From Escherichia coli (GTDB taxonomy: Bacteria > Pseudomonadota > Gammaproteobacteria > Enterobacterales > Enterobacteriaceae): a stretch of DNA of 64,000 nucleotides. This document shows positions 5,380 to 57,996 of the stretch, one piece after another (position 1 is the first letter of the stretch; the number at the start of each line of letters is the position of its first letter). The translations under genes were made by a program, and so were the position numbers. Location: the NCBI RefSeq assembly GCF_050320075.1, contig NZ_CP190018.1; one strand, 5' to 3'. The notes beneath the pieces were generated by a model. The model made no database searches. It saw nothing but the letters and a program-made list of their open reading frames with translations, and was not told the DNA's origin.

Positions 5380-5611
5380 TATCACGGATGCTTTTATAAA
5401 AATAATTAGAATAAGTCACTACGCATTCCCATAAATGCGGGAGAGGAATCTATCACATTGATAAATGTTAGCCAGATATACGCCAGGAATGGGGAATTGT
5501 TTAGCGGCAGAATATGTAAACAAAAGCGGCAATAAATGTTGCCGGGAGGGATGGTAGGGCGGATAAGATGCATCAGCATCGCATCCGACACCAACCCGCA
5601 CGCTAAATATG

Positions 5612-5640
5612 AAAGGGGAGCGGTTACCCGCTCCCCTTTG
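5612..5640. terminator. Hairpin terminator downstream of tisB (tisAB transcript 3' end)
   Basis: Inverted repeat aaaggggagcgg / ccgctcccctttg read directly in the sequence, just after the tisB stop. Confidence 0.55.
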
Positions 5641-5658
5641 GTGCGACTTGAATCTGAA

Positions 5659-5748
5659 TTACTTCAGGTATTTCAGAACAGCATCAAGCAGTTGCAGTGC
5701 TGCAACAATGAGTTTGAGGATAAGAATGGCGATATCCACCAGGCTCAT
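5659..5748 (-). CDS. tisB: Type I toxin TisB (29 aa, SOS-induced membrane peptide)
   Basis: Minus-strand translation reads MSLVDIAILILKLIVAALQLLDAVLKYLK, the TisB peptide with one N-terminal substitution; too short to appear in the ORF track. Confidence 0.85.
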   Translation of the reverse strand: MSLVDIAILILKLIVAALQLLDAVLKYLK

Positions 5749-5982
5749 ACGCGTCTCCTGTGGTTCAGGAGCACTGCCAGCTGACGTACCTTTCCGCTGC
5801 CTGTTGCCAGCTGTTGTGCACGCGGTATCTCAAGGAGAAACGTTGTGCTCGTTGACATAACACAGTGTGCTCACGCGGGGTTAAGGCGCTGACGGCACCA
5901 CCCGTTTCAGCCAGGACTTAGTGCGCCGGGTAACGATGCGGCCCCCGCATAACACATTGCGTACAGTGATATTATAGAAGTT

Positions 5983-6002
5983 TACTGTATAAATAAACAG
6001 TA
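5983..6002. promoter_or_regulatory. LexA operator (SOS box) at the tisAB promoter
   Basis: tactgtataaataaacagta contains a perfect CTGT-N8-ACAG LexA box; a minus-strand TATAAT (-10) lies at 5971-5976 just downstream. Confidence 0.75.
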
Positions 6003-6107
6003 ATATTTGGACAAAACGCAAACTGTGATCGATACTCAACTATGCACTAAATACGTCAAAATTCGTGCCGAAATTGCGCGTTTTGCGCGGAACACGTATA
6101 CTTTCTG

Positions 6108-6186
6108 TGTTGACATAATACAGTGTGCTTTGCGGTTACCAGCCGCGGGCGGCTGACGAAACCTCGCTCCGGCGGGGTTTTTTGTT
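6108..6186 (+). ncRNA. istR: IstR-1-like antitoxin sRNA (approximate boundaries)
   Basis: Plus-strand segment acataatacagtgtgctttgcgg (about 6110-6135) is a near repeat of 5861-5885, which lies inside the tisAB 5' UTR, giving the expected IstR/tisAB complementarity; followed by a GC hairpin and T-run near 6160-6186. Exact ends not determinable here. Confidence 0.5.
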
Positions 6187-6312
6187 ACCTGCAGTACAGT
6201 ACAAAACGTGATCAACCCCTCAATTTTCCCTTGCTGAAAAATTTTCCATTGTCTCCCCTGTAAAGCTGTGCTTGTATAAATATTGTTAAACACAAAACCA
6301 ACAAGGTCCCCA

Positions 6313-6411
6313 ATGACTACTTCCATGCTCAACGCAAAACTACTACCAACTGCGCCATCCGCCGCAGTGGTCGTCGTGCGTGTGGTGGTGGTCGTCGGCA
6401 ATGCGCCGTAG
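6313..6411 (+). CDS. ivbL: ilvBN operon leader peptide
   Basis: 32-codon ORF MTTSMLNAKLLPTAPSAAVVVVRVVVVVGNAP with the Val-rich run typical of the ilvB attenuator leader. Confidence 0.85.
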   Translation: MTTSMLNAKLLPTAPSAAVVVVRVVVVVGNAP

Positions 6412-6436
6412 GGACTGGAACAACACACGATTCCAA

Positions 6437-6470
6437 AACCCCGCCGGCGCAAACCGGGCGGGGTTTTTCG
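6437..6470 (+). terminator. ilvBN attenuator (rho-independent terminator)
   Basis: aaccccgccggcgcaaaccgggcggggttttt: GC-rich hairpin plus U-run immediately after the leader peptide. Confidence 0.75.
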
Positions 6471-6516
6471 TTTAATCACCTCCCGGAAAGTCGGCCCAGA
6501 AGAAAAGGACTGGAGC

Positions 6517-8205
6517 ATGGCAAGTTCGGGCACAACATCGACGCATAAGCGCTTTACCGGCGCAGAATTTATCGTTCATTTCCTGGAACAGCAGGGCATT
6601 AAGATTGTGACGGGCATTCCGGGCGGTTCTATCCTCCCTGTTTACGACGCCTTAAGCCAAAGCACGCAAATCCGCCATATTCTGGCTCGCCATGAACAGG
6701 GCGCGGGGTTTATCGCTCAGGGAATGGCGCGCACCGACGGTAAACCGGCGGTCTGTATGGCCTGTAGCGGACCGGGGGCGACTAACCTGGTGACCGCCAT
6801 TGCCGATGCGCGGCTGGACTCCATCCCGCTGATTTGCATCACTGGTCAGGTACCCGCCTCAATGATCGGCACCGACGCCTTCCAGGAAGTGGACACCTAC
6901 GGCATCTCTATCCCCATCACCAAACACAACTATCTGGTCAGACATATCGAAGAACTCCCGCAGGTCATGAGCGATGCCTTCCGTATTGCGCAATCAGGCC
7001 GCCCTGGCCCGGTGTGGATAGACATTCCTAAGGATGTGCAAACGGCCGTTTTTGAGATTGAAGCACAGCCCGCGGTGGCAGAAAAAGCCGTCGCGCCCGC
7101 CTTTAGCGAAGAAAGCATTCATGACGCAGCGGCAATGATTAATGCTGCCAAACGCCCGGTGCTTTATCTGGGCGGTGGTGTGATCAATGCGCCTGCGCGA
7201 GTGCGTGAACTGGCGGAGAAAGCGCAGCTGCCTACCACCATGACTTTAATGGCGCTGGGTATGCTGCCAAAAGCGCATCCGCTGTCGCTGGGTATGCTGG
7301 GGATGCACGGTGTGCGCAGCACCAACTATATCTTGCAGGAGGCGGATCTGCTGATTGTTCTCGGCGCGCGTTTTGATGACCGGGCGATTGGCAAAACCGA
7401 GCAGTTCTGTCCGAATGCGAAAATTATTCATGTCGATATCGATCGCGCAGAGCTGGGTAAAATCAAGCAGCCGCACGTAGCGATTCAGGCGGATGTTGAT
7501 GACGTGCTGGCGCAGCTGATCCCGCAGGTGGAAGCGCAACCGCGTGCAGAGTGGCACCAGTTGGTAGCGGATTTGCAGCGCGAATTCCCGTGTCCAATCC
7601 CGAAAGCGTGCGATCCATTAAGCCATTACGGCCTGATCAACGCCGTTGCCGCCTGTGTCGATGACAATGCGATTATCACCACCGATGTGGGTCAGCATCA
7701 GATGTGGACGGCGCAGGCTTATCCGCTCAATCGCCCACGCCAGTGGCTGACCTCCGGCGGGCTGGGCACGATGGGCTTTGGTCTGCCTGCGGCGATTGGC
7801 GCGGCGCTGGCGAACCCGGATCGCAAAGTGTTGTGCTTCTCCGGCGACGGCAGCCTGATGATGAATATTCAGGAGATGGCGACCGCCAGTGAAAATCAGC
7901 TGGATGTCAAAATCATTCTGATGAACAACGAAGCGCTGGGGCTGGTACATCAGCAACAGAGTCTGTTCTACAAGCAGGGCGTTTTTGCCGCTACCTATCC
8001 GGGAAAAATCAACTTTATGCAGATTGCCGCCGGATTCGGCCTCGAAACCTGTGATTTGAATAACGAAGCCGATCCGCAGGCTGCATTGCAGGAAATCATC
8101 AATCGCCCTGGTCCGGCGCTGATCCATGTGCGCATTGATGCCGAAGAAAAAGTGTACCCGATGGTGCCGCCAGGTGCGGCGAATACTGAAATGGTGGGGG
8201 AATAA
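6517..8205 (+). CDS. ilvB: Acetolactate synthase I large subunit
   Basis: 562-aa ORF, ThDP-enzyme-like translation; leader/attenuator upstream and small subunit gene 3 nt downstream. Confidence 0.95.
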   Translation: MASSGTTSTHKRFTGAEFIVHFLEQQGIKIVTGIPGGSILPVYDALSQSTQIRHILARHEQGAGFIAQGMARTDGKPAVCMACSGPGATNLVTAIADARLDSIPLICITGQVPASMIGTDAFQEVDTYGISIPITKHNYLVRHIEELPQVMSDAFRIAQSGRPGPVWIDIPKDVQTAVFEIEAQPAVAEKAVAPAFSEESIHDAAAMINAAKRPVLYLGGGVINAPARVRELAEKAQLPTTMTLMALGMLPKAHPLSLGMLGMHGVRSTNYILQEADLLIVLGARFDDRAIGKTEQFCPNAKIIHVDIDRAELGKIKQPHVAIQADVDDVLAQLIPQVEAQPRAEWHQLVADLQREFPCPIPKACDPLSHYGLINAVAACVDDNAIITTDVGQHQMWTAQAYPLNRPRQWLTSGGLGTMGFGLPAAIGAALANPDRKVLCFSGDGSLMMNIQEMATASENQLDVKIILMNNEALGLVHQQQSLFYKQGVFAATYPGKINFMQIAAGFGLETCDLNNEADPQAALQEIINRPGPALIHVRIDAEEKVYPMVPPGAANTEMVGE

Positions 8206-57901: not shown

Positions 57902-57996
57902 TGGCGGAAGATCACAGGAGTCGAACCTGCCCGGGACCGCTGGCGGCCCCAACTGGATTTGAAGTCCAGCCGCCTCACCGGAGACGACGATCTTCC
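57902..57996 (-). tRNA. selC: tRNA-Sec (selenocysteine tRNA)
   Basis: 95-nt minus-strand sequence GGAAGATCGTCGTCTCCGGTGAGGCGGCTGGACTTCAAATCCAGTTGGGGCCGCCAGCGGTCCCGGGCAGGTTCGACTCCTGTGATCTTCCGCCA, with the long extra arm and CCA end of E. coli selC. Confidence 0.95.

Follow-up and report, generated by a model that had tools for sequence, protein, structure and literature searches.

An intact chromosomal tisAB/istR-1 type I toxin-antitoxin locus of Escherichia coli carrying the consensus Ser2 allele of TisB

The window, a 64,000-nt stretch of Escherichia coli DNA, contains two divergent small transcription units, the toxin unit tisAB on the minus strand and the sRNA unit istR on the plus strand, separated by a single LexA box (Table 1). 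They are found in the order emrD-ysdE / tisAB-istR / ivbL-ilvBN, which is also the context in the annotation of E. coli MG1655 and of E. coli CFSAN061763; in the window, the ivbL leader peptide is read at 6314 (ORF listing). An initial annotation of this DNA had set the limits of the locus at 5612 and 6190, and these limits agree well with the features, as the tisAB terminator hairpin forms one edge and the 3' end of IstR lies at 6183.

Table 1. Features of the tisAB/istR locus, in coordinates of the window.
Feature	Position	Strand	Basis or remark
tisAB intrinsic terminator hairpin	5612..5639	-	Perfect 12-bp stem, 4-nt loop (inverted-repeat search)
tisB CDS, 29-aa membrane toxin, Ser2 allele (WP_000060506.1)	5659..5748	-	ORF listing, HMMs
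tisA ORF, 37 aa	5745..5858	-	ORF listing; 4-nt overlap with tisB start
tisB Shine-Dalgarno AGGAGA, within predicted hairpin	5754..5759	-	Direct reading; motif in PMC11264685 Table 1
IstR-1 target, ribosome standby region in tisAB 5' UTR	5851..5871	-	Repeat search; mechanism PMC4147584, PMC8145889
tisAB -10 hexamer TATAAT	5971..5976	-	Direct reading; same as K-12; motif in PMC11264685 Table 1
LexA (SOS) box TACTGTATAAATAAACAGTA	5983..6002		Between divergent tisAB and istR-2 promoters
istR-2 promoter: -35 TGGACA 6008-6013, 17-nt spacer, -10 GATACT 6031-6036	6008..6036	+	Promoter scan; PMC11264685 Table 1
IstR-2, 140 nt, SOS-induced long form	6044..6183	+	Ends transferred from MG1655 RefSeq ncRNA by alignment
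istR-1 promoter: -35 TTGCGC 6074-6079, 17-nt spacer, -10 TATACT 6097-6102	6074..6102	+	Direct reading; PMC11264685 Table 1
IstR-1 antitoxin sRNA: 5' tail 6109-6129, stem-loop, terminator hairpin 6158-6181 and U-run	6109..6183	+	Rfam, folding

The 29-codon minus-strand ORF on which the initial annotation was built was recovered in the ORF listing, with an ATG start and a product of 29 aa, MSLVDIAILILKLIVAALQLLDAVLKYLK. This peptide scored 37.6 bits against Pfam PF13939 (TisB_toxin; cut-off 25), and the NCBIfam equivalog models NF011340 (69.9 bits, cut-off 53) and TIGR04459 (61.5 bits, cut-off 38) both matched it over its full length (1-29). TisB carries a conserved charged and polar face consisting of D5, K12, Q19, D22, K26 and K29, of which K12 and Q19 are essential (PMC11449926), and direct reading found all six residues in MSLVDIAILILKLIVAALQLLDAVLKYLK. 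The identical Ser2 peptide has been reported to be toxic (PMC11264685). Upstream, the overlapping tisA ORF is of the kind kept in more than 99% of loci (PMC11264685), and no translation of tisA is known, as reported. For the tisB Shine-Dalgarno, the probability of being unpaired was predicted to be about 0.16 whether the mRNA was in the +1, the +42 or the +106 form, so that the tisA ORF is followed by a tisB ribosome-binding site which is predicted to be structured and to need a standby site. At the 3' end of the unit, the terminator lies 20 nt past the tisB stop codon and its T-run falls partly within the stem.

A perfect LexA box had been proposed at 5983-6002. The position is exact and the TACTG and CAGTA half-sites are indeed perfect, but the whole box agrees with the idealised palindrome TACTG(TA)5CAGTA at 18 of 20 positions. 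Nowhere else in the 64 kb of the window is there a site with three mismatches or fewer to this palindrome, and none occurred in 100 shuffles. The box is identical to that of K-12 and lies 6 bp upstream of the -10 hexamer of tisAB. Its proposed overlap with the tisAB -35 region likewise stands, since the box would extend from about -38 to -19 when positions are counted from the TATAAT at 5976..5971, and transcription of tisAB probably starts near 5964, which would put the tisB AUG at +217. The tisAB and istR-1 promoters were placed by matching published hexamers, whereas a generic promoter scan recovered the istR-2 promoter only.

On the plus strand, the Rfam model istR (RF01400) matched 6054-6183 over its full length (1-130) with 145 bits, compared to a gathering score of 45, and a divergent IstR sRNA with its own promoter and its own terminator was thus identified. 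The 5' end of IstR-1 falls at 6111 if the 73-nt K-12 RefSeq annotation is transferred and at 6109 for the 75-nt form, the latter being 7 nt past the -10 hexamer. Folding of IstR-1 gave a minimum free energy of -31.2 kcal/mol (z = -2.8) and left the 5' tail (6109-6129), the partner of tisAB, single-stranded. Two further Rfam matches, STnc310 and P6 at 6426-6530 (-), were below their gathering scores and lie over the ilvB attenuator/terminator hairpin; they were taken as chance.

The initial annotation also described a repeat that gives the IstR-1/tisAB pairing region. The repeat is real, but its two copies are at 5851-5871 and 6109-6129 and not at 5861-5885 and 6110-6135, the coordinates on the tisAB side having been some 10 nt too large and the length overstated. 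The copies (GTTGACATAACACAGTGTGCT and GTTGACATAATACAGTGTGCT) are identical at 20 of 21 positions (repeat search), and no further place on either strand of the window was within four mismatches of the 21-mer. Since tisAB and istR are transcribed from opposite strands (minus and plus, respectively), a repeat on the plus strand translates into complementarity of the two RNAs. The predicted duplex is continuous over 21-22 bp, comprises 20 Watson-Crick pairs and one G.U pair (the sole mismatch), and has an energy of -37 kcal/mol, compared to -14.4 +/- 2.2 kcal/mol for shuffled IstR-1 tails (n = 1000; best -23.2). In the deduced mRNA the target spans roughly +94 to +114, its end being 102 nt upstream of the tisB AUG. 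When IstR-1 was compared to the whole tisAB mRNA by a method that ignores intramolecular structure, -78 kcal/mol was obtained as compared to -57 +/- 4.4 for shuffled sequences. Local DNA alignment showed nothing past the 21-mer, and neither a more extended complementarity between IstR-1 and the mRNA nor an origin of the two segments by duplication is claimed here. A 12-mer, CATAACACAGTG, was observed at 5856-5867, 5948-5959 and 6114-6125 with at least 92% identity; two of the copies belong to the IstR-1/target pair, and the third is located close to the 5' terminus of the tisAB mRNA (about +5 to +16) and may be fortuitous or have to do with the 5' structure masking the standby site.

We therefore assign 5612-6190 of the window, with a probability of about 97%, to the chromosomal tisAB/istR-1 type I toxin-antitoxin module of E. 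coli, present in an intact form and with the consensus Ser2 allele of the toxin. None of the observations ran counter to this assignment. That a complete tisB/istR locus is present, as claimed initially, is borne out by the agreement between the K-12 position and annotation, a genome of 100% identity, the Rfam istR model and the TisB HMMs. A 761-nt query (5560-6320) found matches in 5419 of 5426 complete E. coli genomes, and in E. coli CFSAN061763 the match was 100% identical, with tisB (WP_000060506.1) and ivbL annotated under it by RefSeq. RefSeq annotation calls tisB in these E. coli genomes. Alignment with tisAB-istR of K-12, the check that had been suggested for the initial annotation, showed that 749 of 761 bases are identical in MG1655 and that the peptide frame is undisrupted. 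The locus is already known, being the textbook SOS-induced module in its commonest natural form, and outside correct annotation the importance of the assignment is slight.

Compared to tisAB/istR-1 of MG1655 (b4618/b4616), the locus has the same position, gene order and strands, and the LexA box, the promoter hexamers, the Shine-Dalgarno and the 21-nt segment are identical. None of the 12 single-base differences from MG1655 in the 761 nt falls in any of these elements, and at the level of the sequence no regulatory element is altered relative to K-12. A C at 5744, where K-12 has T, changes codon 2 of tisB from AAC to AGC and thereby Asn to Ser, and is the sole non-synonymous difference. The difference at 5850 is synonymous in tisA and lies one base beyond the IstR-1 duplex, while those at 6147 and 6152, both A to G relative to K-12, convert U-A into U.G pairs in the IstR stem, which is kept according to the Rfam structure line. 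A change at 5626 affects a loop base of the tisAB terminator only, and changes at 6083 (in the hairpin specific to IstR-2) and 6106 (just 5' of the IstR-1 start) affect no element. The remaining five (5572, 5611, 6188, 6194 and 6196) are outside the transcripts and have no effect.

Since the sequence is near-identical to that of K-12, the mechanism established there can be assigned to the present locus (standby and processing, PMC4147584, PMC8145889; LexA repression of istR-2, PMC11264685). LexA bound at 5983-6002 would repress the tisAB promoter as well as the divergent istR-2 promoter, and DNA damage would remove LexA and allow transcription of tisAB on the minus strand. The resulting primary (+1) mRNA is expected to be translationally inert, with its own 5' end sequestering the standby region, and processing to the +42 form would expose a single-stranded standby site located some 100 nt before the structured ribosome-binding site of tisB. 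IstR-1, a constitutive transcript of the plus strand, would pair with this site through its 21-nt 5' tail, thereby blocking standby 30S ribosomes and triggering cleavage by RNase III, which yields the inactive +106 form. Once tisAB mRNA exceeds IstR-1, the 29-aa TisB would be made, enter the inner membrane and collapse the proton motive force and ATP, a depolarisation that would favour dormancy and persistence. The positions of the +42 and +106 ends in the window are presumed from K-12, and the published +106 cleavage site would lie inside the duplex, which covers +94 to +114. In predicted folds of the +1 mRNA, nucleotides 3-25 pair with nucleotides 84-105, which covers half of the target, and the accessibility of the target rises modestly from 0.31 to 0.42 between the +1 and +42 forms when folded without the published pseudoknot. 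The modelled structures thus agree qualitatively with the standby model, in that the 5' end masks the target and the tisB Shine-Dalgarno is paired in all forms.

The initial annotation referred to residue 2 of TisB as an N2S substitution. A real difference from K-12 (MNLVD...) was thereby recognised, but its direction was wrong, as Ser2 is both the majority and the ancestral state. Being a genuine non-synonymous difference from K-12, Ser2 could in principle be a derived mutation specific to this strain that alters or weakens the toxin and makes the locus unlike the textbook system. Of the 4358 complete E. coli genomes that bear the locus, however, 3288 matched a 61-nt query with the Ser2 codon at its centre at 100% identity, whereas the corresponding K-12 61-mer with Asn was found exactly in 998, corresponding to about 75% Ser and about 23% Asn at this residue in a genome collection that is rich in K-12 laboratory derivatives. 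Ser2 has previously been described as the dominant variant of TisB, present at about 85% of the loci in E. coli, B-lineage laboratory strains included (PMC11264685, mSystems 2024), and the peptide of the window does not differ from that consensus allele, termed TisB N2S (PMC11264685; WP_000060506.1), so that the present strain is one more carrier.

Outgroup loci, obtained by scanning GTDB species genomes with a 17-nt pattern and used only if a TisB-like 29-aa ORF was present, point in the same direction. The same scan gave about 50 chance matches in unrelated genomes (Clostridia, Bacteroidota and others), which were set aside. Ser2 was found in many Citrobacter species, Salmonella enterica subsp. 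diarizonae, E. whittamii, other Escherichia species and Intestinirhabdus alba, and the sole non-Ser residue among the outgroup loci was a Gly in Escherichia sp. ESNIH1. Because Ser2 is shared with Citrobacter, S. enterica subsp. diarizonae, E. whittamii and Intestinirhabdus alba, it is, judged by this distribution, the ancestral residue, and Asn2 of K-12 is a derived minority allele. Functionally, TisB-N2S is toxic when overproduced, and at low induction its toxicity somewhat exceeds that of K-12 TisB (PMC11264685), indicating that residue 2 is not wholly neutral. On the other hand, N2 is not conserved among TisB homologues and was not studied further in that work (PMC11449926), and survival of ciprofloxacin did not differ between the Ser2 and Asn2 variants (PMC11264685). 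Given its distribution within and beyond E. coli together with these reports, it is very improbable that Ser2 is a strain-specific mutation impairing the toxin, and we regard it as the consensus form. K-12 is accordingly the outlier at residue 2, and differences in small proteins should be checked against the population and against outgroups before they are named substitutions, a point already published for this residue (PMC11264685).

The Ser2/Asn2 polymorphism might tune the threshold of TisB-dependent dormancy between lineages, and the U.G changes in the IstR stem as well as the presence or absence of the locus could add to this. We consider this unlikely, albeit partly suggested already by the higher toxicity of Ser2 at low induction (PMC11264685). 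If true, studies of persistence based on K-12 would relate to a minority allele that is slightly attenuated.

Beyond E. coli, 21 loci from Escherichia, Salmonella, Citrobacter and Intestinirhabdus had enough upstream sequence for comparison, and all had a TisB ORF, pairing at no fewer than 20 of 21 positions and a CTG-N10-CAG box between the paired segments; having been found through the 17-nt pattern from the pairing region, they contain at least one conserved copy by construction. The IstR target lies about 101 nt upstream of the tisB AUG in the Escherichia and Salmonella loci and about 65-69 nt before it in many Citrobacter loci (L005, L012, L053, L058, L061, L064, L067 and L068). From this spacing it follows that the 5' UTR segment is shorter in these Citrobacter loci, and a full tisA ORF may be lacking. 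Among other divergently encoded type I systems of E. coli whose antitoxin pairs in the 5' UTR, dinQ/agrB, zorO/orzO and shoB/ohsC share several traits with tisAB/istR-1. The toxin is small and hydrophobic, the 5' UTR is long and structured, and the sRNA, encoded in trans, pairs at a site far ahead of the start codon; dinQ is, like tisAB, controlled by LexA (PMC4147584; PMC3567139). Their toxin and sRNA families are, however, unrelated to those found here, and the window locus matches the TisB and istR models only.

The locus is dispensable in nature, as no match to tisB was found in 1068 of the 5426 complete genomes of E. coli (about 20%) and the LexA box of one strain is the site of an ISL3-family insertion. 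It could hence be asked if the copy in the window is a decaying remnant with a non-functional toxin or antitoxin, as in other E. coli strains that have lost the locus or carry it in interrupted form. Both ORFs are intact, however, and any departure from K-12 in the three promoters, the LexA box, the Shine-Dalgarno, the 21-nt duplex or the two terminators is confined to structure-neutral positions. In view of these intact ORFs and regulatory elements we rejected the reading as a pseudogene or remnant, the probability of which is close to nil, and retain that of an intact module.

The whole tisAB-istR block, corresponding to about 5539-6230 of the window, is subject to presence/absence polymorphism in E. 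coli. In strain E1 (L003, 3334-3500), about 150 nt of unrelated sequence is found instead of the block between ysdE and the ilvB promoter, which is thus not a clean deletion. The insertion mentioned above is that of strain 298 (L004, 3937-5200), in which an ISL3-family element with an ISKox3 transposase separates tisAB from istR at a position equivalent to about 5996 in the window, at about the LexA box, which would be expected to disconnect tisAB from both its promoter and its operator.

Further observations concern the neighbourhood of the locus. The gene ysdE (5461-5535, +) has an ATA start here and in CFSAN061763 and an ATG start in K-12 and strain E1; an in-frame TTG is present one codon upstream at 5458, and RefSeq nonetheless annotates the same protein accession. 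A REP-like palindromic unit, GGTAGGGCGGATAAGATGCATCAGCATCGCATCCGACACC, is situated at 5545-5600 between ysdE and the tisAB terminator, and K-12 has one too. Further away, Rfam identified tRNA-Sec (selC) at 57906-57996 (-) and, about 6.7 kb from it, a P4-type C4 antisense RNA, its a1b1 target and isrK at 50924-51200 (-), which suggests that a P4-like element or island adjoins selC. In CFSAN061763, selC is about 11 kb closer to tisB, and iatC, eilA and remnants of type III secretion genes (ETT2-like) lie between them; the strain of the window therefore carries extra DNA near selC.
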